Assembly (NCBI GenBank): GCA_964406645.1
Contig: CAYOSM010000001.1
Location: 5,564-69,563 of the forward strand
Length of the DNA stretch: 64,000 bases
Direction: 5' to 3'
From: an uncultured Bifidobacteriaceae bacterium
GTDB lineage: Bacteria; Actinomycetota; Thermoleophilia; Miltoncostaeales; Miltoncostaeaceae
Positions 20,190-49,220 of the stretch are shown one piece after another; position 1 is the first letter of the stretch, and every line of letters starts with the position of its first letter. Made by a program: the position numbers and the translations under genes. The notes beneath the pieces are model-generated. The model was not told where the DNA came from. It was given only the letters and a program-made list of their open reading frames with translations, and did not search any database.

Positions 20190-20271
20190 GAATAGGATCC
20201 GCCTCTGCCCGAGGGTCGTGACCTTCCCGTCCGTTGACGCCACCTACAGGTGGCGGCGCTTCCAGTGGTGG

Positions 20272-20302: not shown

Positions 20303-20384
20303 GTTCGACTTCCGAGGTTACCTCGAAAGGAGAGCGCCCCGCGTGTGAGGCCCGCCGTGCGTCATACGTCAGACGCGAGCACTG

Positions 20385-27900: not shown

Positions 27901-30813
27901 GTGAGTATCGCGGCAGACAACGGACCGTTAGGGAAGCTCCGAGTCTTCGTCAGCTACGGCCATGATGAGCATTCCGAGCTCGCCGAGAAGCTGAGGCTCG
28001 ATCTTCTCGAACGCGGACATGAGGTCTGGTTCGATCAGACTGAGCTGACGGTGGGTGAGGACTGGGAGCTTCAGATCGAGACGGGCCTCGATTGGCTCGC
28101 CGAGAAACGCGATCGCGCGCGCATGATCGTGTTGATGACGCCGCATTCGGTCCGCCGACCGGATGGCTACTGTCTCAACGAGATCGCGCGGGCGGTCTCG
28201 CGTCGCATCGGCATCATCCCAGTGATGGTCGCGCAGTGCGAGCCGCCCTTGTCCATCTGCCGTATTCAGCATCTGGACATGTCGAGGTGCACTCCGGTGT
28301 CCGAGAAGGAGTCCGAGTACGCGGAGTCACTACGGGTGCTTCTCGGCGCGATCGAAGGGAAGGGGCCGGATGTTGAGGGATTCGCTGCACGGAAGGCGAC
28401 CGTACTCAACCCGATCGACTTCTCCGTCGAGCTGGCAGCCCACAAGGACTTCGTAGGACGCGGGTGGATCCTGAAGGAACTCGATTCGTGGATTAGGGAT
28501 CCAGACGGGAAGCCCGTGTTCACATTGGTCGCCCCACCGGGGTTCGGGAAATCGGCCCTGGCAGTCGAAGTGATACATCAGAGCGGGCACGTAACAGCGT
28601 TTCATATCTGTAACCACTCGAATCAGGAAAAGAATGACTCGAAGCGTCTCGTCATGTCGCTGGCGCATCAGATCTCGACCCAGATGCCGACCTATGACGC
28701 TGTGCTGAAGACGCTGGACCTCGACTACGTGGTCAACGAGTATGACGCAGCCACCCTCTTCGACGTTCTGCTTGCGACCCCGTGCGGGCAGATCCTGCCG
28801 CCCGGTCGGACGATGGTAATCGTGATCGACGGCCTGGACGAGGCGACGAAGGACGGCCGAAACCCCGTAGCCGAATTCGTCGCCGATCGCGCGGCGACGC
28901 TGCCCAATTGGATCCGGATTCTTGTGACGACGCGGCCGGAGCCTGAAGTGCTCGGTCCACTAGAGCCGCTGGGACTGCACCGAGTAGATCCACTCGACTT
29001 GGAGAATCGTGCGGATGTCCAGGACTACTTGAGGGCAAGAATCGGGGAGATCGATGCACCTGCGGCCGCGCATGAACACGCCGTCGATGTCGTCGCAGAA
29101 CGCTCGTCAGGCGTGATGCTCTATGCGCGCTCAGCATGCGAGATGCTGCACCGTGATGGCATCTCAGAAGAGAGCCTCAACGCGCTCCCGGACGGGCTTT
29201 CCTCTCTCTACTACCGCCAGTTCTCAGCACGGTTTCCCGATGTCGACCGCTACGGCTTCTCGGTCCGACCGATCCTCAGCTTGTTGATCGCGGCGTTTCA
29301 GCCGATCGGCTTTGACCTCCTGGCCGCGAGCCAGGGCACCTCTGAAGACGAACTCTGGCAGTCGATTCTCGGGCTTGGATCACTGGTGGTCGACAACGGT
29401 GACAGTGTCACCCTTCACCACAAGACACTGCGCGACTGGCTTTCAGACCGAAGAGCTGCCCATCGCTACTTCGTCTCGGAAGATGCCGGACACCGCTTGC
29501 TGGCATCGGCCACGGCGGAGTGGAAGAAGGTCCCACGCGAGGCTCGTCAGTATCTCTTCAAGTTCGGGCCTCGCCATCTGCTCCACGAACGTGACTGGGA
29601 CGGTTTGTTCCGGGTTATCCGGGAACCGCGGTTTGCCGAGGGGAGGATGCAGCTTCTCGACGACACCATTCGCGACCCGACCAAGACGGATCTGCTCTTA
29701 GACTTGGTCGAACACCTCGTGGATTCCGACGAATCGGGGCTGCTGGATGTCCTCATCGACCGTCTTCATGTCGCTGTCGAACTCGGGTTGTGGCATTCAG
29801 TGATGCCGATCGTCGATGAGGTCATGCTTGACCTGACGTCCGGTCAGCGGAACCGGATCGGGTTTCTTCGCGCCTGGTCGCTCCAAATGTCTGGGGATCT
29901 TGAGAGGGCTGTCGCCGCCTACGAAGACCTTGGAGACGACGTGGACGACCCAGACGGTCACATCGCGTTCAGGCGAGCTGACGCAGTACGCGAGGCCGGG
30001 AACTTCGACGAGGCATTTGAGACCTATCGGGATCTCCAATCACAGGCGGAGGCTCCGGTCCGCCTGCAAATCCTCTACGGGCAACAGTACGCAGACCTTC
30101 TGTATGTGCGCGGGCAGTACCAGGATGCGCTCGATGCTCTGAATACGGCCCTCGAGCGTGGGCACCGCGGGGCACCTGAGATGTTCGCTGAGGCACTCCG
30201 GATCCGTGGCCACATCCACCGCGTCATGCTGGATTCGCAGGAAGCTCTCGCTGACTACGCGGAAGCGCGCGAGATCTTTTCCGAGATCGGCCATCGTTCG
30301 GGAATCGCGCGCATCGAGACCAATCTCGCAGAGGTCTACGCTCTTACTGACCCCGATCGAGGAATCTGGCATGCCGAACAGGCCGCCCACCTGAACGGTG
30401 AGGTCGGCGCGAACCTAGAGGTCGGTAAGGCCATCCGAGCGAAGGGACTCGCCCTCGCCGCAAGAGGTTCCTATGGCGATTCGAGGAGCGTTCTTGATGT
30501 GGCTGAGAGTCGGCTTACCGAAGTCGGCTACGCCGCCGGAGTGTGTGAGACGCAAGCGAACAGAGTCGTCCTCCATGTGCTTGAGAAATCCATTGACGAC
30601 ACCCGGGATTTGATCGTCTCACTTGCTGGTCGGCTCAAGGCACTGAACGCTTATCCGTTGCTGGTTGTCCGTTCGTGCATTCTCCTTGGACGCCACGAAG
30701 CGCTCGATTCGACACTGGCGGCGATCGAGCGCACGTCGGCGGATGCCATTCAATGGCCGATCACTCGAGACGACTACGCGAATCGCCTCCTGGCGGGGCT
30801 AGGACTTTTGTGA
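27901..30813 (+). CDS. TIR-NACHT (STAND NTPase)-TPR protein (TIR-STAND 1)
   Basis: GTG start after GGGAGA. TIR-like LRVFVSYGHDEHSELAEKL...DWELQI...RMIVLMTPHSVRRPDGYCLNEIARA. Walker A VAPPGFGKSALA. NACHT-type Walker B MVIVIDGLDEA. TPR-like helical repeats in the last ~350 aa. Confidence 0.85.
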   Translation: MSIAADNGPLGKLRVFVSYGHDEHSELAEKLRLDLLERGHEVWFDQTELTVGEDWELQIETGLDWLAEKRDRARMIVLMTPHSVRRPDGYCLNEIARAVSRRIGIIPVMVAQCEPPLSICRIQHLDMSRCTPVSEKESEYAESLRVLLGAIEGKGPDVEGFAARKATVLNPIDFSVELAAHKDFVGRGWILKELDSWIRDPDGKPVFTLVAPPGFGKSALAVEVIHQSGHVTAFHICNHSNQEKNDSKRLVMSLAHQISTQMPTYDAVLKTLDLDYVVNEYDAATLFDVLLATPCGQILPPGRTMVIVIDGLDEATKDGRNPVAEFVADRAATLPNWIRILVTTRPEPEVLGPLEPLGLHRVDPLDLENRADVQDYLRARIGEIDAPAAAHEHAVDVVAERSSGVMLYARSACEMLHRDGISEESLNALPDGLSSLYYRQFSARFPDVDRYGFSVRPILSLLIAAFQPIGFDLLAASQGTSEDELWQSILGLGSLVVDNGDSVTLHHKTLRDWLSDRRAAHRYFVSEDAGHRLLASATAEWKKVPREARQYLFKFGPRHLLHERDWDGLFRVIREPRFAEGRMQLLDDTIRDPTKTDLLLDLVEHLVDSDESGLLDVLIDRLHVAVELGLWHSVMPIVDEVMLDLTSGQRNRIGFLRAWSLQMSGDLERAVAAYEDLGDDVDDPDGHIAFRRADAVREAGNFDEAFETYRDLQSQAEAPVRLQILYGQQYADLLYVRGQYQDALDALNTALERGHRGAPEMFAEALRIRGHIHRVMLDSQEALADYAEAREIFSEIGHRSGIARIETNLAEVYALTDPDRGIWHAEQAAHLNGEVGANLEVGKAIRAKGLALAARGSYGDSRSVLDVAESRLTEVGYAAGVCETQANRVVLHVLEKSIDDTRDLIVSLAGRLKALNAYPLLVVRSCILLGRHEALDSTLAAIERTSADAIQWPITRDDYANRLLAGLGLL

Positions 30814-31993: not shown

Positions 31994-34900
31994 GTGTTCG
32001 ACATCTTCATCAGTTACGCACGCCACGATGACAGCGACGGCTGGGTCACCGGTCTGCGAGATGTGATTGTCGCGGATTTCCAGCGGTTTGAGCGGACGCC
32101 ACGGATCTTCTTGGACCGCGAGGACATCCGTGACATGGACGATTGGCGGCACCGAATTCTGGTTGGCTTACGCGAATCACGGGTACTTTTGGTGTGTCTG
32201 TCGCCCGCGTACCTGAAGAGCGAGTACTGCCGGTGGGAGTGGCAGGAGTACGCGCGCCGACAGGCCCGGCTGGCGGGCGGAGGAGACACGGTCGCCGGGA
32301 TCTACTGCGTCGAGATGAACGATCCGGACACCGACGACGTCACCCAGTGGCGACGCGAAGTCGAAACCATCCAGATGACCGACGTGCGCCCCTGGTTCCC
32401 ACAGGGACGATCCGTGCTGGAACAGGACGCCGTCAAGGAGCGACTGTCGGCACTCGGCGAGAGCCTGTCGAAACGTCTGCAGCGCGCTCGGCTGGCACAG
32501 GATTCGCCGGGCAACCTGCAGCGATTCGATCCGTACTTCGTGGGCCGCAAACGCGAGCTGCACGCGCTGCGCGACAGCCTCAGCGCCGGCCGAGTCGGCA
32601 CCGTCACCGCGCTCAGCGGCCTCGGCGGCATGGGCAAGACCGAACTCGCCGTCATCTACGCACACGGCTACCGACACGCCTACCCCGGCGGCACCTGGCA
32701 GATCGGATGCGAGGGTGCAGCCGACCTGGTCGATGTGATCGCAAGCCTCGCCTTCGAACTCAACATCAACGCACCCGACGGAACCCCAACCGACGCCCGC
32801 GCACGCATGGTACTGAGTCGCCTCAGAGAACTCGCACACACACCACGCGAGGACACCCCGGACGACAGCCCGGAACCGGCGACACTTCTCTTGCTGGACA
32901 ACGTCTCGAAACAGAGCCTGTTCTCACCGGAGAGCCTGCGGATCCTGCCAGAGGAGTCCTGGCTACACGTCATTGCAACCACCCGGCTGGGTGAAACCGA
33001 CGTGCAGGCCGTCGGTGCGAAACCCTACGTCAATCTGCTGACGATCACGGCTCTCGACGCCGGTGACGCACTGGAAGTGATTCGCGATCACCAGGAACCC
33101 CGCGACACCGACCGGCTGCACCCCGACTTCGTCGATGCGGACGCCGAGCAGGAAGCAGGGGAGTTGGTCAACGTACTGCAGGGCTTCACGATGGCAGTCA
33201 AACAGGCAGCCGTGTACCTCGGTGCCAACCCCGACCTACGCCCCAGTGATCTCCTCAACACCTTGCACGACCACAGTGTCACCCATCTGGACGACCTGAC
33301 GTCGGAAACCCAGCGGCGCTCGGTGGGAGTGATCCTCGACCAAACCCTCGCCCAACTCACCCCGCGCTGCCTCGAAGCCCTCCAACTCGCCGCCCTCATG
33401 CCACCCGACCACATCGTCTGGCAATGGCTCGAAGAGTTCACCGCACACCTCGACGAAAACCACCCCGACGGCGAACGCTGGCCCGTCGTCCAACGCACAC
33501 TCCTAGGACGCCACCTCATCACCCCCGGCGACACGCTCGAGACGGCCCGCATCCACCGTCTCATCGCCGCCCATATCACCAACAACCTCAGCCCGCCTCA
33601 GGCCGCCGACATCACCGAACGATTCGACGCCTGGGTCGTCGAAGCCGCTGATATCTGCAGTGTCCAGGGCACCCGCCTGACACAGGCGTTCGTGGAACTC
33701 CTCATTCACCGCACCCCCCACAACACGGAGCTCACGCACCAGGCCGTCTACTACGCGCAGACCCTTTCCAGCCTCATCGACCTCGACCACCAAACGCGTC
33801 TGGCAGACACCCTCCACCACCAGCTACGCGGCCTCGCCACCCGCGACGACACCAACACACAGTGGCTCCGGGACCTCGCCGTCAGCCTCAACAACGTAGG
33901 AGACATCGCCACAGCTCAAGGAGAACTGGACAGTGCACACGACGCCTACCAAGAGTCCCTCGACACCATGCGCGAACTCGTCACCCGCGACCCCACCAAC
34001 ACCACCCGGCTCCACGATCTCGCCCGCAGCCTCCTCAACGTCGGAGACGTCACCCGAGCACGCGGCGACCTCGACACCGCCCACACAACGTTCCAAGAGT
34101 CCCTCAACACCATGCGCGACCTCGTCACCCGCGACCCCACCAACACCCAGTGGCTCCGCGACCTCACCATCAGCCTGGACAGAGTCGGAGACGTCACCCG
34201 AGCACGCGGCGACCTCGACACCGCCCACACAACGTTCCAAGAGTCCCTCGACATCCGGCGCGACCTCGTCACTCGCGACCCCACCAACACCACCTGGCTC
34301 CACGGCCTCTCTATCAGCCTCGGAAAGGTCGGTGACATCGCGCACGAACGTGGCGACCTCGACACCACCCAAGACGCCTACAGAGAGTTCCTCAACATCA
34401 TGCGCGAACTCGTCACCCGTGATCGCACCAACACACAGTGGCTTCGCGACCTCACCGTCAGCCTCAACAACGTCGGAGACGTCACCCGAGCACACGGCGA
34501 CCTCGACACCGCCCAATCCATGCACGAAGAATCCCTCAACACCCGGCGCGACCTCGTCACCCGCGACCCCACCAACACAGAATGGCTCCGCGACCTCACC
34601 ATCAGCCTGGACAGAGTCGGAGACGTCACCCGAGCACGCGGCGACCTCGACACCGCCCACACAATGTTCCAAGAATCCCTCGACATCCGGCGCGACCTCG
34701 TTACCCACGACCGCACCAACACCCAGTGGCTCCGCGACCTCACCATTAGCCTCGAGAGGGTAGGAGACGTCACCCGAGCATGCGGCGACCTCGACACCGC
34801 CCAATCCATGTACGAGAAATCCCTGGACATCATGCGCGACCTCGTCACCCGCGACCCCACCAACACGGAATGGCTCGGAGATCTCACCATCAGCCTTAAC

Positions 34901-35185
34901 AACGCCGCCGATATCGCCCTAGCTCGAGGAGACCTCGACACCGCCCAAGACGCCTACCAAGAGTCCCTCGGCATCTTGCGCGACCTCGTCACCCGTGACG
35001 ACACGAACACCAACTGGCTCCACGATCTTGCGTTCAACCTCGGCCGAGTCTGGAACGTCCACCACGAGAACGCACTCCTCGCAGAGGCCCGCACAATCCT
35101 CACGGAGCTTGGCGAGCGGGGCCTATTGTCGCCCGACGGCGTCGAAGTCCTCGCACAGATCAATACCATCCTCGACGCCGACTGA
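31994..35185 (+). CDS. TIR-NB-ARC-like (STAND)-tandem helical repeat protein (TIR-STAND 2)
   Basis: GTG start after GGGAGAGG. TIR-like FDIFISYARHDDSDGW...VLLVCLSPAYLKSEYCRWEWQEY. FVGRKRELHAL; Walker A GLGGMGKTELA; Walker B TLLLLDNV. C-terminal 8.5 copies of a 48-aa repeat. Confidence 0.88.
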   Translation: MFDIFISYARHDDSDGWVTGLRDVIVADFQRFERTPRIFLDREDIRDMDDWRHRILVGLRESRVLLVCLSPAYLKSEYCRWEWQEYARRQARLAGGGDTVAGIYCVEMNDPDTDDVTQWRREVETIQMTDVRPWFPQGRSVLEQDAVKERLSALGESLSKRLQRARLAQDSPGNLQRFDPYFVGRKRELHALRDSLSAGRVGTVTALSGLGGMGKTELAVIYAHGYRHAYPGGTWQIGCEGAADLVDVIASLAFELNINAPDGTPTDARARMVLSRLRELAHTPREDTPDDSPEPATLLLLDNVSKQSLFSPESLRILPEESWLHVIATTRLGETDVQAVGAKPYVNLLTITALDAGDALEVIRDHQEPRDTDRLHPDFVDADAEQEAGELVNVLQGFTMAVKQAAVYLGANPDLRPSDLLNTLHDHSVTHLDDLTSETQRRSVGVILDQTLAQLTPRCLEALQLAALMPPDHIVWQWLEEFTAHLDENHPDGERWPVVQRTLLGRHLITPGDTLETARIHRLIAAHITNNLSPPQAADITERFDAWVVEAADICSVQGTRLTQAFVELLIHRTPHNTELTHQAVYYAQTLSSLIDLDHQTRLADTLHHQLRGLATRDDTNTQWLRDLAVSLNNVGDIATAQGELDSAHDAYQESLDTMRELVTRDPTNTTRLHDLARSLLNVGDVTRARGDLDTAHTTFQESLNTMRDLVTRDPTNTQWLRDLTISLDRVGDVTRARGDLDTAHTTFQESLDIRRDLVTRDPTNTTWLHGLSISLGKVGDIAHERGDLDTTQDAYREFLNIMRELVTRDRTNTQWLRDLTVSLNNVGDVTRAHGDLDTAQSMHEESLNTRRDLVTRDPTNTEWLRDLTISLDRVGDVTRARGDLDTAHTMFQESLDIRRDLVTHDRTNTQWLRDLTISLERVGDVTRACGDLDTAQSMYEKSLDIMRDLVTRDPTNTEWLGDLTISLNNAADIALARGDLDTAQDAYQESLGILRDLVTRDDTNTNWLHDLAFNLGRVWNVHHENALLAEARTILTELGERGLLSPDGVEVLAQINTILDAD
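33851..35070 (+). repeat. In-frame 144-bp tandem repeat array (8 full + 1 partial units) encoding TNTxWLRDLxxSLxxVGDVxRAxGDLDTAxxxxxESLxxxRDLVTRDP
   Basis: The same motif recurs at 33991 and 34135 (144-bp offset) and onward. Several 35-40-nt stretches are identical or nearly identical between units (e.g. gacctcgacaccgcccacacaa[c/t]gttccaaga[g/a]tccctc at ~34070, ~34210, ~34640). This produces the pile of shadow ORFs in all frames. Confidence 0.9.
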
Positions 35186-35193
35186 CGCGGCCG

Positions 35194-36636
35194 TCACCCC
35201 GCGCGCAGGGCTCCGACGTCGAAGGTCGTCAGTAGGTGCCGGGCCGCCGTGTGCTGGCGCTTGAAGGGTCGCACCGTCACGACGATACCGTTGGTCGGGT
35301 TGGCACCCCGCACCGCATCGACGACCACACCTTTCCCCTCTAACAGTTCCTCGAACGCGGCGGTGATCTGCTTCACCGATGTCGATGTCTTCGCGATGGT
35401 CACCACCAGGACGTAGCGATGGTCGTAGATCCGCACCTGAACCCCGGAGCGCACGAACTCCGCGTAGAGATCCACCAGCCCTGACTCTTCGTACACCCGG
35501 ACCGATGTCGGCACCGACGGTGTCGACCGCGGCCGAACGCCCGGAGGCCGCACAAGGCGCTCGAGCACCACGGGCAGAGGATCGCGCTCGAGATCCTCCG
35601 CGTCCACGACCTGGATCCCGTACTCCCAGCACAGACTGCGGAACTCCTGCGCGATCCGCTGAAGAGGACGAAGCAGGATGTACTGATCTCCTCCATCGCC
35701 GAGCTGCCGACGCGTGGCATACGCCTCCCGGATCTGAGTGCTCAGCGGAAGTGCCCGCTCCTCGTCCATCAGTTTGCAGTCGATGACGTGGAGCCGGCCT
35801 CGTGAGTTGACCACGACATCGACCTCCTGCACGCGGAGTATCCCGTCGTAGAGAACCGCGCTCACCGCGACGTCGTCGGCCGCCACCCCCATACCGCGCA
35901 TCAGCGCCATGACGAACTGCTCGAAGACATGTCCCCCCTGGATCCGGTCCTTGGTGTCCTCGACCGCTTGCGTGAAGTGCGTGTACCAGCTCGGCGGATC
36001 GGCGAGCGCCTGAGCGGCGGCAGCCTCGACCTCGGGGTCGATCTCCGTGTGCTGCGCCCGCACCGTCCGTTCCTCATCGGCCCAGGTGACGTTCAGCAAC
36101 GACGCGACCGAGAACCGCTCGATCGCACGGTCGTCGTAGCCGGCCAGTTCACGGATGGCCCCGCCCGACAACAGCTCGTACCATGGCGGCCCTTCCGCAT
36201 CGCAATAGACGACCCGTACGCGCTCCGACCGGTCCGCGAGGCGGGCCGCACCCGCGAACATCAGCCGCGTGCCACCGGAGGCGACGACCAGCCAGTCGCG
36301 CTCGGCGGCCGACGCGTTGATCGGATCGACGACAGCGGCCACGACCGCAGGAGGATCGTCATCGGGAATCGGCTCGTGCCGATGCACGGCGATCCCAGGA
36401 AAACTGTCGGTGATGAAGGCCTCGAGACGGTCCTCGGGGCCACCGGGCTCGTTGTCGCCGTACGCCGTGATCAGGTGCACATCACGGACCCCCTCACCCC
36501 ACTGGGCCAACGCGTCCAATTGACGCCACAGCCCTTCACTCGCAAACATCACCATGCCATCAGGCTGGCCCAGTTGATCCATGCTTTCCGTCTCCATGTC
36601 GGTAACCGCGCCAAGACGCCGTTGACCTCGGGCCAA
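35194..36636 (-). CDS. Card1/Can2-like CARF + PD-(D/E)xK (DUF1887-type) nuclease with extra C-terminal domain
   Basis: The N-terminal Rossmann-like block ends in WLVVASGGTRLMFAGA (CARF GGT[KR] loop). Nuclease block GHVFEQFVMALMRGMG...VQEVDVVVNSRGRLHVIDCKL...QLGDGGDQYILL...YGIQVVD. ~110 unassigned aa follow. The start is uncertain (M1, M14 or M19). Confidence 0.7.
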   Translation of the reverse strand: MARGQRRLGAVTDMETESMDQLGQPDGMVMFASEGLWRQLDALAQWGEGVRDVHLITAYGDNEPGGPEDRLEAFITDSFPGIAVHRHEPIPDDDPPAVVAAVVDPINASAAERDWLVVASGGTRLMFAGAARLADRSERVRVVYCDAEGPPWYELLSGGAIRELAGYDDRAIERFSVASLLNVTWADEERTVRAQHTEIDPEVEAAAAQALADPPSWYTHFTQAVEDTKDRIQGGHVFEQFVMALMRGMGVAADDVAVSAVLYDGILRVQEVDVVVNSRGRLHVIDCKLMDEERALPLSTQIREAYATRRQLGDGGDQYILLRPLQRIAQEFRSLCWEYGIQVVDAEDLERDPLPVVLERLVRPPGVRPRSTPSVPTSVRVYEESGLVDLYAEFVRSGVQVRIYDHRYVLVVTIAKTSTSVKQITAAFEELLEGKGVVVDAVRGANPTNGIVVTVRPFKRQHTAARHLLTTFDVGALRAG

Positions 36637-36696
36637 GATTACTCGGGCGCTGCTCTGGGCCGCGCACTCAGCAGCATGTCCCCTGACGTAGGCGAA

Positions 36697-36715
36697 GGCA
36701 TGACGGCGTCATGCC
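36697..36715. other. Short hairpin GGCATGAC-ggc-GTCATGCC in the spacer between the SLOG-RyR gene and the CARF-nuclease gene
   Basis: 8-bp perfect stem read from the sequence; located in the 354-nt minus-strand intergenic spacer. Confidence 0.3.
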
Positions 36716-36990
36716 CATCCCCCCACAAGAGCGGACGGTATCCAACTCCGTGGTCCTGTCGATGTGCATTTGACGACGACCGGTGCAATACCCGATGTCC
36801 CGAGGGTTTCATCTCGATCCAGAGCGTGTCTCGTCGGGTTATCCAGACCGGACGCATCGGAGCACACGAGGCCCGACACGGGCGCGTTGGCAAGACCTTT
36901 CGAGGCAAAGCTAAACACACTCATAGGCATCATCACGCGATCATCCTGGGAGTGAGCACCGCGTACAGGACGAATCCGAAGAACGCACGC

Positions 36991-39822
36991 TCATTCATCG
37001 CGGACGAGAACGTACCCGCATCGCTCCGCCTCGTAGAGAGCTGCGAGGACTGTCCGGCGATCCTTCACCCGCTCGTCCTCGGCGAGGACGTCCCAGGGTA
37101 TGAGCACCTGCGTCGTCATCCGGATGGGGTTCCGCACCCCGTCACTCCAACCGCTGAGCAGACGCTCGCTGCAGTAGCGACCATGCTCGAGTTCGGCCAG
37201 ACGGTCGAGCGTCTTGCCGGGAGCGGTCTCGGTTCCGAGGGCGCCGGTGGGCACCGCGTGCACCGCAGACCCATGCGTGGTGCGCTGCAGACGCAACCCC
37301 TCCCTGGCGAGTTTCAACGCCAGGTCGTCAGCGACCGCGATATTCGAATCGCGCAGGTTCTGGGGCTGCCCCTCCCAGGATCTCATGGCGATGTCGTCCG
37401 GCATCTGGGTCTCGGCTTTGACATACGCCATGTGGACGGCCCGCCCGATGCGCTGGCGCTCCTCCTCATCCGGCCAGGTCGCGAAGCGGAGAAAAGAGCG
37501 GATGGTCGCTCGATCATCGATCAGGCGGACGACACCCTGATCGCCACCCGGCAGTTCCTCGTCCCAGTCGGTCTCGTCGCCAGGAAGGGGAAGCCAGCCC
37601 ACCCGAACGTTCAGCGCGCGGGCAATCATGACTTCCCTGCGGGTGATGGGGCCCCCTGAACAGACGATGACGCGCACGTCGTTAAGGTCCACTCCGGAGC
37701 GCGCGATGTCCTCCCATCCCGCAATCGCCTGTTCGATCGAGCCTTCTGCTCCAACCTCACTGCGGCGGTCACGATGGTACCCGTCGTGAAAAGTCGCCCC
37801 TCGCCACGCATATCCGGCCGCGTCGAGGCCGAGTTCCTCGGCCACATCGCCGATAACACCGGGCAAACCACTCTCTGTTCCGCCGCTGACGACGACACCC
37901 TCGAACTGAGGCGCACCGAGGGCGAACGAGAGCGTCGCACGAAGCCAGTCCTTGATGTCCTTGGCGTCCTTCCGCTCGTCGAGCGACTTCGCGCCACCGG
38001 CGAACACAGCCACTGGGCCACGCATGGGATGACGATCCGAGGCCTTCCCGTCGCGGGGCAACAGGCATTCATCACGATCGTCGTGTGTCTCCGACAGGAA
38101 GGCGATCCGGACACCGAGGATCCTGCGGATCCACCCTGCCATCGGTACGTCCGGATTCCGCACTTCGGCCATGTCATTCCACAGATCGATCAGTGCCGCC
38201 CGATCCGTTGAACGACGAATGACCTCACACCACAGCATCAGGGCAGCCTCATCGTGCGCACCGTCGGTGAGCAGACACTGAGCAATGCGGGAACGCGCAT
38301 CCACCCGATCGATGGAGAGATCAATGGAGGCATCCTCCAAGAGGTCGGGAAGACCCGGGTTGATCGCTTCGACTACCGCTCGGGCACCGGCCCGGAAATG
38401 GACGAACTCGCGGGTAACCGCCGCCGTTCTGAGAAGGTCGATCCCCTTGAGCTCCTGGCCCTCATTCTCCTCTCGAAGGCGCTCATCAATGGGCTGCCTT
38501 CTCAACAGGTCGAGGTCCGCGGAGGTCTCCTCGATGTCGACCGGCCCCTCCGATATCCGGCCGGCGAACCCGTGGATCCGCGAGCCGACCCAGTGGAGAT
38601 CCACCGAATCGCCGAGGCACCCCTTCAGCCCACCGACGATGGTCTCGACCCCCGCGACCTCATCCCCGGCCACCACAAGGTGCATGGGTTCCCGCCAGGC
38701 GGCGATCCTCCGACGGATCGCCGACGGAAGACCATCCTGGTCGACCTCACAGGGTGCGGCCTCCACCTCCGGAATGCCCAAAGCACCCTCGTACAACGGA
38801 CGCAGCCGATCGACGAACGCTTCGGCATCCGGCGCCATCACCGTGACAATCCTCCACCCCTGTCCTTCCTCCTTCCGTCGGCGCGACCGAGTCACCCGCA
38901 GAGCCTCAAAGATCAGGGCGCGAGTGAATGGTCCGGCGCCGACGATCAGAAGACGCTTTCCGTCGCATTTGCCTACCGACGAATGGAGCTTCGCCGCCGC
39001 GATCACCTCGGCTCGACACGCGACCACGGTTCGCGACTCGCCGTTGGATGATTCGTCGTTGGATCCACACACGACGGCGGATCGCGGCTCCTCGTTCGTC
39101 ACCATCTCGGCAAGCGCACGATCCGCCAGACAGACATACACGGGGATGGCGTGCGGACCGACCGCGCGAGATCCGACATCCCGCATACACCATCCCTGAA
39201 ACGGGACGTACGCCTGGGTTCCCGGACGGGCTGCCAGTAGAGAATCCGCCACGTCGATGCTGAGTTCGTCGTCCCCGGTGGCAACCACAACGTTCTCAGC
39301 CCGGTGGGCAGCGGCGCGGGCCCGGATATCAGAGGCGAGCAACTCGACGGACACCGTCCTCACACCCTCACGACGAAGCGCGGCCAGGATCTGCGGATCA
39401 CCACCGTCATCGGCGACAACAACCTTCCGCTCAGCCACCTCATGGCGGGCGAGTGCCACAGCGAACGGACTCAATCCGATGATGAGCAGGTGACCGCGCG
39501 AGAGGCGTGTCCACAGGTTGCGTACCCGCTCGGAGAAAGTGGCGACCAATCCACCCACGAGAAGGATGGGCGCAAGAAGTCCCGCCAACAACAGGAGCCA
39601 GGGAGTCCCTACGCCGTCCGGCACCGCCATCCCCGCAAAGAACAGCGTGAACACCCGGTACAGGATTCCCCGGAACCCCGGTTCCTGCCCCGCGGGCCAG
39701 TCCACCTGGAGGTATCCGATGACGCCCACCACGGACACGACCAGTACCGCCATGAGCAGGGCCACGTACTCCGGGGAGCGGCGCCACCACGATCGAGATC
39801 GTCCTTCACCGCGAGATGTCAT
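36991..39822 (-). CDS. 2TM - tandem Rossmann (TrkA-N/RCK-like) - SLOG (LOG/DprA-like) - RyR domain protein
   Basis: Two N-terminal hydrophobic helices (YVALLMAVLVVSVVGVIGY; WLLLLAGLLAPILLVGGLVA). GxGxxG-like HLLIIGLSPFAVAL and RLLIVGAGPFTRAL. SLOG-like VAVFAGGAKS...GVVVSGGTESGLPGVIGDVAEE...VIVCSGGPITRREV. C-terminal RyR-like LAELEHGRYCSERLLSGWSDG...LIPWDVLAEDERVKDRRTV. Confidence 0.65.
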   Translation of the reverse strand: MTSRGEGRSRSWWRRSPEYVALLMAVLVVSVVGVIGYLQVDWPAGQEPGFRGILYRVFTLFFAGMAVPDGVGTPWLLLLAGLLAPILLVGGLVATFSERVRNLWTRLSRGHLLIIGLSPFAVALARHEVAERKVVVADDGGDPQILAALRREGVRTVSVELLASDIRARAAAHRAENVVVATGDDELSIDVADSLLAARPGTQAYVPFQGWCMRDVGSRAVGPHAIPVYVCLADRALAEMVTNEEPRSAVVCGSNDESSNGESRTVVACRAEVIAAAKLHSSVGKCDGKRLLIVGAGPFTRALIFEALRVTRSRRRKEEGQGWRIVTVMAPDAEAFVDRLRPLYEGALGIPEVEAAPCEVDQDGLPSAIRRRIAAWREPMHLVVAGDEVAGVETIVGGLKGCLGDSVDLHWVGSRIHGFAGRISEGPVDIEETSADLDLLRRQPIDERLREENEGQELKGIDLLRTAAVTREFVHFRAGARAVVEAINPGLPDLLEDASIDLSIDRVDARSRIAQCLLTDGAHDEAALMLWCEVIRRSTDRAALIDLWNDMAEVRNPDVPMAGWIRRILGVRIAFLSETHDDRDECLLPRDGKASDRHPMRGPVAVFAGGAKSLDERKDAKDIKDWLRATLSFALGAPQFEGVVVSGGTESGLPGVIGDVAEELGLDAAGYAWRGATFHDGYHRDRRSEVGAEGSIEQAIAGWEDIARSGVDLNDVRVIVCSGGPITRREVMIARALNVRVGWLPLPGDETDWDEELPGGDQGVVRLIDDRATIRSFLRFATWPDEEERQRIGRAVHMAYVKAETQMPDDIAMRSWEGQPQNLRDSNIAVADDLALKLAREGLRLQRTTHGSAVHAVPTGALGTETAPGKTLDRLAELEHGRYCSERLLSGWSDGVRNPIRMTTQVLIPWDVLAEDERVKDRRTVLAALYEAERCGYVLVRDE

Positions 39823-40095: not shown

Positions 40096-41193
40096 GTGAC
40101 ATTGACACCCTTGCCGGGCGACGTCCCAGTGGTGCCACCGGAACATCAACGGATCACCAGTAGCATCACGAATGGCCGTCGCAGCGGCGGCCGCAACCCG
40201 TACTCATCACCCACAGCAAGGCTACACGTGACCATTCCCCCACCTGCCTTCGGATGTTCTCCGTCCCACGATCAGATCGTGGAGGACATATCCCGCTGGT
40301 TGGCAGCACCCGCTCTCCACGAACTCCTGACGCGGTTCGGAGGGCCGACCCCGGCTAACGTCGACGATCTCGATCACGTCGCCGAATGGGCCGCGACGCA
40401 CTGGGATTTCCGGTCCGGCAGAGAGCGGAACCTGGTCCACGCGAGTGAGGTTGCAGCCGGAGATGAGGAACTCATCGTCGCGTGCGCCGACGAACTCGGC
40501 TTGGTCACCCCGAGGAAACCCGAGCGCGACTCCTACGACGCGATCGCCATGCTGGGAGGACTGATCCGTGCGTGCGTCTGGCGACCAGAATATGCGGCCC
40601 ATCTGGTCGCCCAGGGCGTACGCGCCAATAGCGTCGCCGCCATCTCGGGCTTCCGCACCCTCAACGATGCCGAGACCGTGATGCTCCCCGCGTTCGGGCT
40701 GAACGGCGTGACGGAAGAACACCAGGTGATGGAAGGCGCGCTGCGGACGGCGTTCGGGATCGACACCATGGACGACCGGATTCCCCTGGATGAGACGCTG
40801 CCGCCGAATCTGCGGCACTACGTGCGCACCGGACAGAGTTCGTCCGGAGTGCCCGCGATGATGGTCGTCGCACCGTCGACCGATCCTTCCCGCCGCGCGA
40901 ACACTCCGGACGGATACACGTACTGGTCGACTGAGGTCGCACATCTGCGCCCCGGTGACCGCGTGCTCCTCGTCACGACCCAGATCTACCTGCCGTTCCA
41001 ACATGCCGATGCCATCCGCATTCTGGGACTCACACAGGGATGCATCATCGAAACCGTCGGTGTCGACCGCGACGCGGTGGACGACCGCGGCCACGACCAA
41101 CCGTTCACGGGGGTCAACTACCTGCAGGAGATCAACTCGACCCTGAGGTCGTACCGAGGACTCATCGCCGTCGTCGAAGGCCAGAACCTCTGA
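40096..41193 (+). CDS. DUF218 (YdcF/SanA/ElyC)-like Rossmann-fold protein
   Basis: YDAIAMLGG, ISGF, TEEHQV, RANTPDG and VLLVTTQIYLPFQHADAIRILG follow the order of conserved DUF218 blocks. The stop overlaps the TIR-STAND 3 start (TGATG). The start is uncertain (track start 40096; GTG 40228 possible). Confidence 0.5.
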   Translation: MTLTPLPGDVPVVPPEHQRITSSITNGRRSGGRNPYSSPTARLHVTIPPPAFGCSPSHDQIVEDISRWLAAPALHELLTRFGGPTPANVDDLDHVAEWAATHWDFRSGRERNLVHASEVAAGDEELIVACADELGLVTPRKPERDSYDAIAMLGGLIRACVWRPEYAAHLVAQGVRANSVAAISGFRTLNDAETVMLPAFGLNGVTEEHQVMEGALRTAFGIDTMDDRIPLDETLPPNLRHYVRTGQSSSGVPAMMVVAPSTDPSRRANTPDGYTYWSTEVAHLRPGDRVLLVTTQIYLPFQHADAIRILGLTQGCIIETVGVDRDAVDDRGHDQPFTGVNYLQEINSTLRSYRGLIAVVEGQNL

Positions 41194-44114
41194 TGCCCCT
41201 GCCGTCCTACCACGACGTCTTCATCTCGTACGCCAGCGAGGACCTCCACACGGCGACCCGGTTGCGGGATGCCCTAGACGTGCACGACTGCTCCGTGTGG
41301 CTCGACAAGGTCGAGATCAGAGATCTTGACCCCATAACCGAACGTCTGGAGAACGGCGTCAATCGCAGCCTGCTGACGGTGGTGTTGGTGTCAGCGAGCC
41401 AGATGTCCTCCCGCGTGTGCCGATGGGAGATACTCCGATCCCTTGCACTAGGCGACGCGCGCGGGTACGACCGGATCGATCTCGTCCAGATCGATGACGC
41501 GCTGGCCGACATGTCGCCATCACCGCGTCGCCGTCGATCCATCGATCTGCGCACGACAGCCGTCGATGACGCGGCAGCGGCTTTGTTCGAACGCGTCAAG
41601 GAGGCCCGCGCACTCGACACGGACGCGTGGGGTGAGGAGGACGCGATTGATACGACGGTGAAACGCGGGATTCCTGGAGGCTCTGGGCACCGCTACTTCG
41701 GCCGTCTCCCCGAGCTCCAGGCGATCTACGACAGCCTCTGCGGCCCATGGCGGCACATGGATCGAGGGCACATCTCGCGCCACGATGCCTGCGTCGTCCA
41801 GGGCATGGGAGGCGTCGGCAAGAGCATCCTGGCCACGTTCTTCGCAGAGCAGTTCGCCCGGTCCTTCTCCGGTGGCGTCGTCTGGCTGGGTGCCGGCGGC
41901 GACCAGGTCGACAACGATGCGGCCTCCCTTGAGGCGAAGGACGAGACGTTCCTCCGCCTGGGTGACGCGGTCCTGGAATGCGCATCCGAGCCACCCGTCA
42001 TCGTCATCCCGACGGAAGCGGTGCCCATCGAACCACGCAAACGATGGCGTCATCTGTGCCAGGAGGTTGTACCCGAGTTCGGCCAGGGACAACGAACACT
42101 CCTCATCATCGATGACCTGCCGAGGGGCATCGATGCGAAGGACGTCTGCCCGGACGCCGAGAACGTCGCGGTCCTGATCACCGCACGGGATGCCGTACAC
42201 GCCGCTCAGGGCATCCACCTGGTGAAACTCGAGCCGTTCGATATCGATGAGGGTGTGCTCTTCCTCGCGGACGCACTCGACCCGACGCGCTCGATCAGGC
42301 GTGCCGGCGGTGATCCATTCGATGGAGAGGCGAAGCAGGCCCGTGCTCTGGTGGAAGCCGTCGGAAGTCATCCCCTCGCGCTGGATCTCCTCGCCGTTCG
42401 CATCATCGAGCAGAGGGACCGGATCGCGGATCTGCTCCACGAGATCGAGGCCCAGGCAGAGAGGTTCCTTGACCTTCCCGCATACGCCGCCGACCTGCCG
42501 ACCCAACACACACCGAGTATCCTCGCAACGGTGAGCGGGTCGCTCCGAAGTCTTCACTCGACCGACGCTGCCGGGGTGGTCCTGCCCATGTTGCGGGCGA
42601 TGATGGTTCTGCCCGCCGGTCAGGCGATCCCGCATGACCTGATGGAGAGAGTGGCCGGACACGACGCCCGAAGTGGCGCACACGTGCTGCATGACCGGTC
42701 GGTCGCCAAACTGGATCACGATGGCATCCGATTCCACGCCCTCACCCGTGGAGTGGCGCGGATCCTTTGGGACCAGCAGAGTGAGCCCTTCGGAAGCTGC
42801 CGCGAGATGGAACCGGGTCTCTCACTCACGATCGCAACCTGGTTACATGAGACGGCAGAGGAGGAGGGCCTGACGCCCACGGCACTTCGACTCGCCCGCG
42901 AGCTCATCGACGTGATCGACGACGTCACCGTCACGTTTCCCGACGCCGTCGGGCCCGATCAGCGTCGGCAGCGCAGCGAAGCATGGTTGCGACTCGCCCG
43001 TGAACGCAACCGCACCCCCGCCCCTCTCACCGACAAGGATCCGGAGGCCGCTGAGCAATGGGCCAAGGATCTGGAGGCCGCTGAGCAATGGGCAGAGGAG
43101 GCGAAGCGCGACCTCCCCAAGGGCCGGCCGGATCTGGAGGGAATGCAGTGGTGGCGAGCGGAGGCGATGCAGGCCCTCCTCCGCTCAAAGCTCAACGAGC
43201 AACGCATCAAGAAAGGAGATGCCGAGGCACGGAAGCATGTACTGGTCATCCTCGAACGCTTGATCCGATCGGCCGAGGTGCGTGAGGAGTACGCAGAAGT
43301 GCTCCTCGCAGACCCCGCGATCGACGAAGCGTCACGGGATTGGATCGCCGTCAACCGCATGGCGGCGAAAGGGAACCTTCCCGGTCGATACCTCGACATC
43401 GCGAAACTCCACGCTGATGACGGAGCCAGCGACGACACGGTCGGGGAATATCTCGACCTCATGGAGCTGACGCATCACGAGCTGATCGTACTCCGGGAGG
43501 CGCACACGAATCCTCGGATCGCCGACCTGGCAAGCAACCACGAAGGTCTCGGGTCGGTGGCCTATCATCGCGCCGTCCTACTCACCGAGTCCGGCTCGGC
43601 CAAGACCCAGCACCTTCGATCCGCCCTTGCCCCGCTGATCGAGAGCATCCAACTGCGAACGAGCGTGAAGAACCTGCAGGACGAGGTCGACATCTCGAAG
43701 TCGCTGCGGCTGCTACTCAAGGTCACGGTCGCGATCGCGGCGCTCGACGGCGGACCGCAAGAGGCTCAATCACTCCTCACCGACCACCACGCCACCGCCG
43801 CTTCCGAGGTGAGCGCGTTGGAGCCCGGCGACTACCGCGGCGGACCGGGGTCGGCCGAACAGGCAACCCGTGACCAGACAGCGGCGGGACGCTACCGAGA
43901 CGCCCAGGCCCGGTCGATCCTGGACGCCGGCGACGTGACCGCACCGGACATCGCTGGCCTGATCGGAGCGTGCGTCAGGTGGCTTGTTGTCGCGGATGAG
44001 CGCACAGCCGATCCGGAGGGCCGACAGGCACGCCGTGTGACCGTGGACGACGTTGCCAAGGCCCTGTTCGACATCGACAACGAGATCGCGCGGATGATGG
44101 ACACGATGGCGTAG
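41193..44114 (+). CDS. TIR-NB-ARC-like (STAND)-helical sensor protein (TIR-STAND 3)
   Basis: ATG 41193 (MPLPSYHDVFISYASEDLHTA). TIR-like LLTVVLVSASQMSSRVCRWEILRSL. YFGRLPELQAIYDSL; Walker A QGMGGVGKSILA; Walker B LLIIDDLP. Helical C-terminal ~450 aa. The 51 codons before 41193 in the track ORF lie inside the upstream gene. Confidence 0.85.
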   Translation: MPLPSYHDVFISYASEDLHTATRLRDALDVHDCSVWLDKVEIRDLDPITERLENGVNRSLLTVVLVSASQMSSRVCRWEILRSLALGDARGYDRIDLVQIDDALADMSPSPRRRRSIDLRTTAVDDAAAALFERVKEARALDTDAWGEEDAIDTTVKRGIPGGSGHRYFGRLPELQAIYDSLCGPWRHMDRGHISRHDACVVQGMGGVGKSILATFFAEQFARSFSGGVVWLGAGGDQVDNDAASLEAKDETFLRLGDAVLECASEPPVIVIPTEAVPIEPRKRWRHLCQEVVPEFGQGQRTLLIIDDLPRGIDAKDVCPDAENVAVLITARDAVHAAQGIHLVKLEPFDIDEGVLFLADALDPTRSIRRAGGDPFDGEAKQARALVEAVGSHPLALDLLAVRIIEQRDRIADLLHEIEAQAERFLDLPAYAADLPTQHTPSILATVSGSLRSLHSTDAAGVVLPMLRAMMVLPAGQAIPHDLMERVAGHDARSGAHVLHDRSVAKLDHDGIRFHALTRGVARILWDQQSEPFGSCREMEPGLSLTIATWLHETAEEEGLTPTALRLARELIDVIDDVTVTFPDAVGPDQRRQRSEAWLRLARERNRTPAPLTDKDPEAAEQWAKDLEAAEQWAEEAKRDLPKGRPDLEGMQWWRAEAMQALLRSKLNEQRIKKGDAEARKHVLVILERLIRSAEVREEYAEVLLADPAIDEASRDWIAVNRMAAKGNLPGRYLDIAKLHADDGASDDTVGEYLDLMELTHHELIVLREAHTNPRIADLASNHEGLGSVAYHRAVLLTESGSAKTQHLRSALAPLIESIQLRTSVKNLQDEVDISKSLRLLLKVTVAIAALDGGPQEAQSLLTDHHATAASEVSALEPGDYRGGPGSAEQATRDQTAAGRYRDAQARSILDAGDVTAPDIAGLIGACVRWLVVADERTADPEGRQARRVTVDDVAKALFDIDNEIARMMDTMA

Positions 44115-48454: not shown

Positions 48455-49220
48455 CAGCCGCTCCTTCGAGATGAACCATCACCACTGTCACGTTGTCCGG
48501 AGCCCCCGCGCGCAGCGCTTCGTCGACGAGGATCCGGACGGCCTGCACATCCGCACCGGCGTCACGGACGATCTGCGCGATCTGAGCGCGGGACAGCGCC
48601 GCCTCGAGCCCGTCGCTGCAGACGAGAAGGCGGAGACCAGGCTCGGTCGGGCACCGGCCGACATGAGGCTGCGGCAGCACCGCGCGATCCGCGCCGCCGA
48701 CGACCTGGGTGACGACCGACGATCGCGCCTCCGGGTCGACTCCGGGTGGGCGCGGCGGATGATCGTCGATGCTGAGCTGAAACAGTTCGTCGGAACCGAG
48801 ATCGAAGACCGCCGAATCACCCACGTTCGCGTAGAGGGTGTCCTGAGGTGTGACGACCAGTGCCGCGATCGTGGTGGCCATCCCCGACGACTCCGGTTCG
48901 ATCGTCATCTGATCATGCAGGGCGTGGTGGGCGGAGACGATCGACTCGGCCAGCGCCGCGGTCGTCGAAGTAACGGCTCCGGATGCCATCGACGCCAGCG
49001 CATCTGCACTGGCGCGTTCGCCGAACGGGTGACCACCGGCGCCGTCGGCCACGGCGATGAATACAGGGTGACCCAACAGCAGTCGCCGTCTCAGGAGCAC
49101 GCCGTCGGGCACGAGCCATCCGGCGACGAGGGCTCGGTCCTGATTGCGAACGCGCCGCGCACCCCGGTGACTGAATGCGGTGATCTCAACGGTGGGCACG
49201 CGCCTACCGAGGTTCCTCAT
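48447..49220 (-). CDS. PP2C-family Ser/Thr phosphatase
   Basis: SHRGARRVRNQDR, AVADGAGGHPFGE, GMATTIAAL, NVGDSAV, CSDGL and DNVTVVMV motifs. Confidence 0.88.
   Translation of the reverse strand: MRNLGRRVPTVEITAFSHRGARRVRNQDRALVAGWLVPDGVLLRRRLLLGHPVFIAVADGAGGHPFGERASADALASMASGAVTSTTAALAESIVSAHHALHDQMTIEPESSGMATTIAALVVTPQDTLYANVGDSAVFDLGSDELFQLSIDDHPPRPPGVDPEARSSVVTQVVGGADRAVLPQPHVGRCPTEPGLRLLVCSDGLEAALSRAQIAQIVRDAGADVQAVRILVDEALRAGAPDNVTVVMVHLEGAAGE

Follow-up and report, generated by a model that had tools for sequence, protein, structure and literature searches.

A channel-like SLOG-RyR protein among TIR-STAND genes as a candidate effector of Thoeris-like immunity

Described systems related to the locus

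A survey of Thoeris immunity distinguished 29 putative types, including type III, with several TIR genes and a SLOG effector, and type X, with a TIR gene and an ion channel (10.64898/2025.12.03.692087). In this survey, the SLOG domain of ThsA was summarized as binding 3'-cyclic ADP-ribose (3'cADPR), and a candidate termed 'SLOG and 4TM' was carried as untested-positive (10.64898/2025.12.03.692087). RyR, TrkA and RelA were not found in the parts of its text and supplements that were examined (10.64898/2025.12.03.692087). Here we describe a gene flanked by TIR-STAND genes on a 64,000-nucleotide stretch of actinobacterial DNA (contig CAYOSM010000001.1, assembly GCA_964406645.1), and the whole of this stretch is called the window below. 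The gene (36991..39822, minus strand) encoded a 943-residue protein with a predicted P-loop pore, two RCK/Rossmann modules, a helical linker, a SLOG domain and tandem RyR repeats. We gave about even chances to the reading that this protein is a TIR-based, Thoeris-like effector, namely an RCK-gated P-loop cation channel that would be opened by an ADP-ribose (ADPR)-type signal made by TIR proteins. Most likely, its role would be antiviral: within a bacterial signalling system not described so far, it would be the component that kills the cell or arrests its growth.

The locus resembled Thoeris systems in several respects. Namely, TIR genes stood beside a SLOG sensor joined to a toxic output, as in the SIR2-SLOG protein ThsA of type I, the presence of several TIR genes was similar to type III, and a channel output was similar to that of type X (ThsK). 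In contrast to these systems, the effector in the window carried RCK and RyR domains, and the window TIRs were STAND-TPR proteins encoded on the opposite strand. ThsK was rejected as a match because its hhalign probability against the profile of our transmembrane (TM) domain was only 0.6%; the ThsK reference was a presumed one, a 208-amino-acid (aa) gene adjoining the listed TIR at the Vibrio sp. JCM 19052 locus (L087:3369-3995), with the loop TLTYGGF. The type III effector ThsD was rejected as well, being a 192-aa stand-alone SLOG protein of the LD_cluster3 kind that matched PF18180 only (L088). In contrast, the SLOG domain of the window protein was embedded in a 943-aa membrane protein and, taken together with its homologues, weakly matched LSDAT_prok, LDcluster4 and YAcAr. 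Thus, the window protein may be likened to Thoeris effectors in function, as a member of neither the ThsK nor the ThsD family.

Among channels of known structure, GsuK is gated by multiple ligands; it consists of a 2TM K+ pore with two RCK domains and, according to the titles of its PDB entries, has been solved with ADP and NAD. The window protein shared with GsuK and MthK (4GX0-4GX5, 1LNQ, 6OLY) the order of M1, pore helix, loop and M2 followed by RCK, with two RCK modules in tandem as in GsuK. Unlike them, it had neither the TVGYG filter nor sequence similarity in the pore, it possessed about 520 extra C-terminal residues, and its genomic context was immune rather than homeostatic.

The C-terminal domains had precedents in phages and animals. 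Phage RyR (PF02026) domains bind 2'cADPR as well as 3'cADPR with nanomolar affinity or cleave them, and the phage protein RyDEP cleaves both molecules (PMC13232231). Its contacts to 3'cADPR and ADPR are H75, W78, H100 and D117, which were reported to be conserved over the R12 family including RyR3; RyDEP homologues with the conserved residues mostly bind without cleaving (PMC13232231). Both RyDEP and the RyR-domain protein of B. thetaiotaomicron are homodimers (PMC13232231). The RyR repeats of the window protein were similar to RyDEP and other R12 (PF02026) domains in sequence and fold, and kept the putative His, aromatic and Asp contact residues. On the other hand, the fourth contact His was replaced by Ser/Thr, and the protein was a host-encoded, channel-like fusion rather than a small soluble anti-defence protein. 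TRPM2 also combines a SLOG-fold domain (its N-terminal MHR1/2) with a P-loop cation channel. In comparison to TRPM2, the window protein was predicted to have 2TM instead of the 6TM TRP pore, its SLOG domain was C-terminal to the pore, RCK and RyR were present, and NUDT9-H was missing. There was no evidence of direct descent between the two.

Domain architecture and predicted fold

The 943-aa open reading frame (ORF) was confirmed as coding. Its GC content by codon position was 0.72/0.48/0.74, and this coding-gene pattern was seen within sequence of 66% GC. The NCBI-derived version of the protein (P0001) had 920 aa because it started at Met24, thereby losing the Arg-rich N-terminus and a part of TM1 (39754-39822, minus strand). 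The 943-aa start was backed by the homologue alignment and by the Logan gene call. Antisense ORFs of 576, 265 and 304 aa overlapped the gene (35929-37659 and 38254-39199, plus strand); they are not genes but shadow ORFs of the sort expected at high GC.

The motifs quoted in the initial annotation of this DNA were all located in the translation. Namely, HLLIIGLSPF occupied residues 111-120 and RLLIVGAGPF residues 290-299, the LOG/SLOG-like pair of glycine loops corresponded to VVVSGGTESGLPGVIG at 643-658 and VIVCSGGPITRREV at 718-731, and the RyR-like C-terminal motifs to EHGRYCSERLLSGWSDG at 879-895 and IPWDVLAEDERVKDR at 908-922. The two N-terminal hydrophobic helices that it had noticed were placed at about 17-38 and 75-95 by hydropathy and by an AlphaFold2 (AF2) model. 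The GYG filter of K+ channels, which it had not seen, was indeed absent, with no G[YFL]G anywhere in the 943 aa. The charges of the segments (+4 at the N-terminus, -1 in the loop and +3 after TM2) fitted a topology with both termini inside the cell. Two features were missing from that annotation, namely the helix and loop between the TM segments (50-74), which give the topology of a P-loop channel pore, and the presence of two RyR repeats rather than one.

The AF2 model, calculated from an alignment with 37 homologues, had a mean predicted local distance difference test score (pLDDT) of 86.7 and a predicted TM-score (pTM) of 0.81. In its N-terminal part it comprised helices at 17-38, 50-60 and 75-107, a loop at 61-74 and Rossmann folds at 112-197 and 289-413. 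The C-terminal part consisted of an all-helical region (430-586), a SLOG domain (604-766) and RyR helix-hairpins at 786-840 and 870-941. When the full model was compared with the PDB by Foldseek, the best match was the Geobacter GsuK channel (E=3e-7), followed by the TrkA gating ring, MthK, the C-terminal domain of KefC and Slo1. The same search recovered Repeat12 of human RyR3 (9ls7/6uhb; E=5.4e-4, target-normalized TM-score (TMt) 0.52). The SLOG region was aligned to ADPR(P)-bound TRPM2, namely to the Nematostella protein with ADPR-phosphate (9jje; E=1.5e-3, root-mean-square deviation (rmsd) 3.8 Å for 168 aligned columns) and to 8sri, and further to MCP, a protein with the LOG fold (2iz5, TMt 0.65). 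Among viral models, the confident partial matches came from phages, namely one potassium-channel-domain protein and several 'RyR domain-containing' proteins.

Profile searches had been suggested as a check of the SLOG, TrkA_N and RyR similarities, and Pfam found all three, SLOG and RyR below their cutoffs. TrkA_N matched at 113-199 with E=8e-6 and 26.6 bits (cutoff 23.8), RyR at 871-938 with E=5.6e-4 and 20.6 bits (cutoff 27.4), and LSDAT_prok ('SLOG in TRPM, prokaryote') at 603-660 with E=2.4e-3 and 17.6 bits (cutoff 25.4). A phmmer search of the C-terminus against PDB sequences retrieved an RyR1 repeat chimera (6UHI, 1.8e-8) and the RyR-domain protein of B. thetaiotaomicron (3NRT/6UAG, about 1e-3). 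In the 37 aligned full-length homologues, Pfam recognized TrkA_N and RyR in every sequence (RyR at best 7e-12) and some SLOG family in nine (E<=0.01). Since phmmer, the Pfam matches of the homologues and Foldseek agreed independently, the weak RyR and SLOG calls were considered confirmed. The SLOG region alone gave only a chance FtsZ match among PDB sequences, and the 943-aa protein matched no NCBIfam family and no PADLOC-DB v2 family at E<=0.01, SLATT-type 2TM effectors included.

The TM domain (the first about 100 residues) was additionally modelled alone. This model had a pLDDT of 89.5, with helices at 6-27, 39-49 and 64-99 of the fragment, and its top 50 Foldseek matches in the PDB were all pore domains of tetrameric P-loop cation channels. 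They included Slo2.2 (TM-score 0.54-0.57, rmsd 3.9), many KcsA entries, the TM domains of NMDA and AMPA receptors, TRPV2, SthK, KirBac and Kv4.3. The pore fold was assigned because of this uniform list and because the whole protein matched GsuK and MthK. Accordingly, TM1 (residues 17-38; 39709..39774, minus strand like all parts of the gene), which was recognized by hydropathy and modelled with a pLDDT of about 90, would be the outer helix. Residues 50-60 formed a re-entrant, pore-helix-like element in the AF2 model, followed by a filter-like loop at 61-74 without the K+ signature (together ILYRVFTLFFAGMAVPDG; 39601..39675). Finally, TM2 (residues 75-107; 39502..39600; hydropathy and AF2) would be the inner helix leading into the RCK linker.

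The signature T-V-G-Y/F-G of K+ channels was absent from the window protein, the loop of which read FFAGMAVPDG. In the family, the pore motif was YRTxRLFTL[D/N]L[D/G]VPDG, in which Y55, L60 and F61 were conserved, and the consensus of the filter loop was T-L-(D/N)-L-(D/G)-(V/P)-(P/A)-(D/A)-G. Separately encoded 2TM relatives had Q-L-F-x-L-E-S-G at this position. These observations supported a predicted P-loop channel fold with a non-K+ filter at the N-terminus, at the level of the fold only.

The pore was followed by RCK/TrkA_N module 1 (residues about 110-245; 39088..39495), identified by Pfam and by Foldseek matches to GsuK, TrkA and MthK. The family consensus of this module was HVIVCGAGxxG...VVxVDxD, which keeps GxGxxG and the ribose-binding Asp. 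Rossmann/RCK module 2 (residues about 286-425; 38548..38967) started with LLIVGAGPF, had the expected beta-alpha pattern in the AF2 model and was aligned to the tandem-RCK proteins GsuK and TrkA. The all-helical linker modelled next (residues about 430-590; 38053..38535) was common to RelA/SpoT-SLOG-RyR proteins; phmmer matches of RelA/SpoT-type proteins started at about 480-600, and Pfam recognized TPR in the linker of relatives.

The SLOG domain (residues about 600-770; 37513..38025) was assigned from the weak Pfam match, Foldseek and conservation, and its glycine loops were AGGAKS, SGGTESGLPGVIG and SGGPITRRE. Loops at 608-613, 646-658 and 722-730 were conserved in the family with the patterns GGxxS, SGGTxxGxxGxxG and PGGxxTxxE. 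Among the 37 homologues, G609 was kept in 36, G652 in 35, G723 in 36 and E730 in 29. Some relatives had visibly eroded SLOG loops. ADPR binding by the SLOG domain of TRPM2 was taken from the PDB entries matched by Foldseek.

RyR repeat 1 (residues about 785-845; 37288..37470) was recognized from the AF2 model and conservation, with H797-x-x-Y800, D810 and S826-N827; H797 was present in 36/37 homologues and Y800 in all of them. RyR repeat 2 (residues about 869-943; 36994..37218), supported by Pfam, PDB phmmer and Foldseek, contained H880-x-x-Y883, R882, R887, W892, R897 and D921. The contacts of RyDEP were transferred by spacing to H36, W39, H61 and D78 in the protein from B. thetaiotaomicron and from there to the window protein by the phmmer alignment, without use of a RyDEP structure. 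They mapped to H880, Y883, T904 and D921. H880 was invariant (37/37), an aromatic residue occupied position 883 in all homologues (W in 18, Y in 14 and F in five), and D921 was kept in 36/37. Position 904, by contrast, was Ser/Thr in 35 of the 37 sequences, where RyDEP has His (H100). We propose that an ADPR-derived TIR product would bind the RyR pocket, the SLOG pocket, or both, judging from these residues and from the related domains described above. Literature searches turned up no paper linking SLOG joined with RyR.

Homologous families and their TIR genes

Homologues were collected by an exhaustive HMMER search of 1.84 billion cluster representatives, which returned 2,332 matches at E<=1e-3 and 759 at E<=1e-10. 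Most of the matches covered only residues about 600-925, i.e., SLOG and RyR. A word-indexed homologue search gave no match beyond the window protein itself, and tblastn found no match of the RyR repeats in 50,697 phage records or of the whole protein in 72,556 plasmids. The common SLOG-RyR unit occurred in two architectures, one with the channel-like N-terminus and the commoner one with a RelA_SpoT N-terminus (about 830-1000 aa). In some relatives, a NUDIX domain preceded RelA_SpoT-SLOG(-RyR) (L070:6677-10927, P0092, P0110, P0124), and this fusion is a further link to ADP-ribose chemistry.

A locus scan, restricted to one genome per species and seeded with a 12-sequence alignment, produced 80 loci (L001-L080) from many bacterial phyla and from archaea; its search pattern did not match the LEHGRYCSER of the window protein. 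According to hidden Markov models (HMMs) built here, RelA_SpoT-SLOG-RyR proteins were present in 68 of these loci, the fused channel-SLOG-RyR form in four, and a separate neighbouring 2TM-TrkA_N-RyR gene in 17. The separate proteins (about 600-680 aa) matched the N-terminal 200 residues of the window protein and its RyR repeats and were devoid of SLOG. A two-gene module, RelA_SpoT-(TPR)-SLOG-RyR together with 2TM-TrkA_N-RyR, was widespread over many bacterial phyla and some archaea and often abutted TIR-repeat proteins. Examples were L016:8636-11140 with 11568-13406, L027:387-2927 with 3406-5262, and L013:9787-11631 with 11219-14158. In the literature searched, we found no description of this module or of the TIR-associated family.

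The window protein was in effect a fusion in which the N-terminal two thirds of a 2TM-RCK-RyR protein continue into the linker-SLOG-RyR portion of the neighbouring protein, and the association with TIR genes was common to both forms. In contrast to the two-gene module, it was a single polypeptide and lacked the RelA/SpoT alarmone-synthetase-like domain. Since the channel part and the SLOG-RyR part were fused here and split between adjacent genes elsewhere, they are expected to work in one pathway. Within the genomes sampled, the fused form came mainly from those of the Actinomycetota type with high GC. The combination of RCK-like modules with RyR, which had been thought unusual, turned out to be regular within the family, as it was present in 37/37 members as well as in the separate 2TM-RCK-RyR class.

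RyR repeats were also attached to other N-termini in several loci (L004:7598-10558, L029:4628-10537, L054:3197-5803, L056:14505-17381, L071:5430-8177, L052:4891-7791), so that the RyR domain seems to be a module shared by several outputs within one locus. At another locus, a second gene with a channel-type N-terminus (L092:3941-5263) directly followed the fused channel-SLOG-RyR gene (P0011), the two being tandem paralogues.

Three TIR-STAND genes were located within 7 kb of the channel gene in the window, all on the plus strand. TIR_B (31994..35185), a TIR-STAND-TPR protein of 1063 aa, was convergent with the effector gene; it matched Pfam TIR_2 and TPR and contained the Walker A motif GLGGMGKT and the sequence YCRWEW. 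TIR_C (41193..44114), a TIR-NB-ARC protein of 973 aa by gene call, was divergent from the effector gene and matched Pfam TIR_2, ThsB_TIR, AAA_16 and NB-ARC, with VCRWEI and a Walker A motif. We considered these two as candidate signal producers. The third TIR-STAND of the island, TIR_A (27901..30813), was by Pfam a TIR-NACHT(NPHP3_N)-TPR protein of 970 aa. All three kept the Glu of the C-x-x-E motif, which we take to be the holder of the catalytic glutamate of TIR NADases. TIR_B was 37-42% identical over 470-780 residues to TIR-STAND proteins abutting RelA_SpoT-SLOG-RyR genes in Planctomycetota and Verrucomicrobiota (L033, L069, L070). Moreover, the TIR domain of TIR_A was 55% identical to a TIR fragment beside the pair of 2TM-RCK-RyR and RelA_SpoT-SLOG-RyR genes in an acidobacterium (L013). 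Such a partnership of TIR-STAND and SLOG-RyR proteins, recurring over phyla, is hard to explain by chance.

An iterated TIR HMM detected TIR ORFs in 29 of the 80 loci, a count made without a per-genome background in a set where several phyla are TIR-rich. In total, there were 41 such ORFs in 1.28 Mb; 20 of them were no more than 700 bp away from a core gene, 31 were on the strand of the core gene, and this adjacency and strand bias are independent of the background. All ten TIR ORFs that were sampled matched Pfam TIR_2 and were fused to WD40/β-propeller, LRR, TPR, PKD, HEAT or PsbP-type regions, as is usual for sensor proteins.

The linkage was tightest around the fused genes. In P0006, a relative with 31% identity over its full length, the channel gene was enclosed by two TIR genes (652 and 430 aa) with 4-nt overlaps. 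The closest relative, P0002 (39%), had the order TIR-TIR-channel. P0013 had TIR-channel-TIR, P0004 had a TIR gene set apart from a channel-TIR pair, and the arrangement in L024 was alike. The two TIR partners in these operons were orthologous from locus to locus. Thus, two dedicated orthologous TIR genes in tight operons point to a cognate signal. In a metagenome-assembled genome of Actinomycetota, a protein combining TIR_2 with CD225 (interferon-induced transmembrane protein) was encoded about 2 kb from a fused channel-SLOG-RyR gene (L017:14598-15968).

Proposed function, alternatives and the island

According to the initial suggestion, the protein could be an effector that disrupts the membrane or conducts ions once a nucleotide made by TIR proteins gates it. 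This suggestion was supported by three independent lines, the predicted GsuK-like fold, the TIR gene context and the literature on ligands of RyR and SLOG domains. As such an effector, it would reside in the cytoplasmic membrane and have the architecture of a tetrameric, RCK-gated P-loop cation channel of the GsuK/MthK type, to the C-terminus of which a nucleotide-sensor unit has been fused. In the mechanism that we envisage, infection would activate a neighbouring TIR-STAND protein, which would convert NAD+ into an ADPR-derived small molecule. The signal would then bind the pocket of the RyR repeats and/or the SLOG domain, as judged from the conserved ligand residues and from published related domains. 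From the architecture, the resulting change would be expected to pass via the RCK ring to the inner helices and open the pore. Similar to other membrane effectors, the cation flux might collapse the membrane potential, and growth would stop or the cell would die before phage release. What was observed is the order and fold of the domains in the model, the conserved residues of the pockets and the linkage with TIR genes in the genomes.

A number of observations weighed against this reading. With respect to the pore, the individual Foldseek matches of the TM domain were weak (E 0.3-1.5), as expected for a helical query of 101 residues, Ion_trans_2 or another channel model of Pfam was found in none of the 37 homologues, and an HMM of the TM domain found no channel among PDB sequences, only a chance adhesin match. 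The filter loop in the window was less polar than that of the family and lacked its acidic and Asn residues. The GxGxxG motif of RCK1 was degenerate in the window protein (GLSPFA). With respect to the signal, the window TIR genes were on the strand opposite to the effector, and a TIR-effector operon existed only in homologous loci. Moreover, TIR domains of large STAND proteins are often NAD+-depleting effectors and not signal makers. No TIR gene was seen in six of 13 fused-type contexts (L003, L008, L085, L090, L092 and the P0007 contig), four of which were on contigs shorter than 9 kb. Additionally, 37 of the 80 loci contained RelA/SpoT-SLOG-RyR and lacked both TIR genes and a separate gene for the channel, and some relatives of the fused type were located among housekeeping genes.

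The many family loci that lacked a TIR gene would be easier to understand if the protein sensed the general breakdown of NAD+, i.e., ADPR, cADPR-type by-products or falling NAD+ caused by any NADase defence, and then opened as a death switch, either in reserve or to amplify the response. PDB titles indicate that NAD+ and ADP are ligands of the RCK domain in GsuK, the closest structural match. Moreover, the family RCK1 keeps GxGxxG and the ribose-binding Asp, and the window TIRs were fused to STAND. However, the closest homologues shared their tight operons with a pair of dedicated, orthologous TIR genes, and the glycine motif of RCK1 was degenerate in the window protein itself. On balance, we regarded such a general sensor as unlikely.

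The near invariance of H880 and D921, the equivalents of the catalytic dyad of RyDEP (PMC13232231), could instead mean that the RyR module destroys or processes the TIR signal and acts as an off-switch or threshold setter in the manner of RyDEP. The SLOG domain, which keeps the LOG-like PGGxxTxxE, could be such an enzyme as well. However, most RyDEP homologues bind their ligand without cleaving it (PMC13232231), the position of the phosphate-contacting H100 was Ser/Thr in the family, and a channel-like fusion is better explained by sensing. An enzymatic role was therefore judged quite improbable.

We attached an equally low probability to the idea that the RyR repeats are homotypic adaptors, like effector-associated domains, which would assemble RyR-tagged effectors and leave sensing to SLOG alone. 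It would account for the RyR repeats on both partners of the two-gene module and on further neighbours with other N-termini, and it is consistent with the homodimers formed by RyDEP and the B. thetaiotaomicron protein (PMC13232231). However, the 2TM-RCK-RyR partner, having no SLOG, would then be sensorless, and conservation in the family extended to the pocket residues rather than to interface residues alone.

The hydrophobic filter loop of the window protein would also suit a membrane disruptor, in which ligand-driven higher-order oligomerization of the 2TM segments breaches the membrane. A mechanism of this kind has been proposed for SLATT effectors and for those of type II Thoeris. Signal-activated defence effectors commonly act in this way (10.64898/2025.12.03.692087). 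However, in the confident model of the TM domain a P-loop pore unit leads into RCK modules; this is the layout of true gated channels, and made simple disruption very unlikely.

Finally, the least credible alternative was a housekeeping role, as a cation channel or osmoregulator under the control of cellular nucleotides, with the TIR genes as incidental island cargo: TrkA_N/RCK is typical of K+ homeostasis proteins, and fused-type relatives in Pseudonocardia and on some metagenomic contigs stood beside metabolic genes without TIR, but the K+ filter was absent, the distribution was patchy, the neighbours in the island were all singleton clusters, the gene lay in a lower-GC island with conjugation-type ATPases, and TIR genes were repeatedly adjacent in operons over phyla. 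With regard to the concern that the homologues might be housekeeping K+-uptake regulators, some relatives of the fused type stood beside metabolic genes, and the closest homologues were in TIR operons.

The preferred reading of the window protein as a TIR-linked gated channel would give TIR/Thoeris immunity a further type of effector, namely a gated P-loop channel that has an RCK ring. It would also reveal a larger family of at least 759 cluster representatives (E<=1e-10), in which the SLOG-RyR sensor is coupled to an alarmone-synthetase-like domain or to a channel. A more specific form of this reading is that the channel is opened directly by a cyclic-ADPR-type molecule made by TIR proteins, with RyR-Repeat12 and a TRPM-type SLOG as the sensors, and we put it forward only tentatively, as possible but rather less than probable. 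If this were true, R12 would be a genuine binding site of the cADPR family, and the animal RyR R12 and TRPM SLOG domains would have their ancestors in prokaryotic sensors of immune signals, which were coupled to ion channels even then. The RelA/SpoT-SLOG-RyR and channel-RyR proteins would then form a large unnamed class of TIR-linked immunity in bacteria and archaea.

Whether ryanodine receptors are a direct target of cADPR is a long-standing question. An R12-type domain on a small bacterial channel, encoded beside candidate makers of cADPR isomers, would be a tractable model for the gating of a pore by R12. Moreover, three regulatory modules known from animal channels, namely the RCK of BK/Slo, the SLOG of TRPM and the R12 of RyR, were joined here in a single polypeptide, which bears on the origin of these modules.

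Other genes were found close to the effector. Downstream and on the same strand there was a CARF-like protein with a PD-DExK nuclease domain of the Card1/Can type (35194..36636, minus; 462 aa by gene call, 35194-36582), recognized by the PADLOC model CARF4--CARF_PDDEXK (5.6e-9) and by a weak Pfam match to Card1_endonuc. A 74-aa ORF also lay downstream of the effector gene, on its strand. Among the window ORFs scanned, no CRISPR-Cas genes were recognized, and the CARF-like nuclease might act as a second effector that responds to a nucleotide signal, from TIR proteins or of another origin. On the other side, a 321-aa gene (40228..41193, plus) was divergent from the channel gene, and its stop overlapped the start of TIR_C. 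It had no match in the Pfam, NCBIfam and PADLOC libraries searched, and Rv3785_N (PF27209) was assigned to it only in precomputed Pfam.

The GC content of the window dropped near 12-13 kb from about 0.71 (1-13000) to about 0.62-0.67 (13000-64000), and the channel gene was in the lower-GC part. This part encoded ATPases of the TrwB/HerA-like and FtsK/SpoIIIE types (24758-27271, plus; 56633-59506, minus), which suggests an island similar to actinomycete conjugative elements that carries immune genes. No tRNA was found in the window, nor an integrase among the ORFs scanned. The island proteins that were looked up were all singletons at 90% identity in a collection of 15 billion proteins. Just inside the lower-GC region, at 15258-24531, seven of eight consecutive ORFs (241-736 aa) had no Pfam match at E<=0.01, and the eighth (19440-20189) had a weak match to HTH_23 (E=0.008). 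At 45503-51830 (minus strand), co-directional genes encoded a 983-aa Ser/Thr kinase similar to PADLOC mad6/PD-T4-6, a PP2C phosphatase, an FHA protein and a ClpB-like AAA_2 ATPase, and this cluster may be another conflict system of the island.

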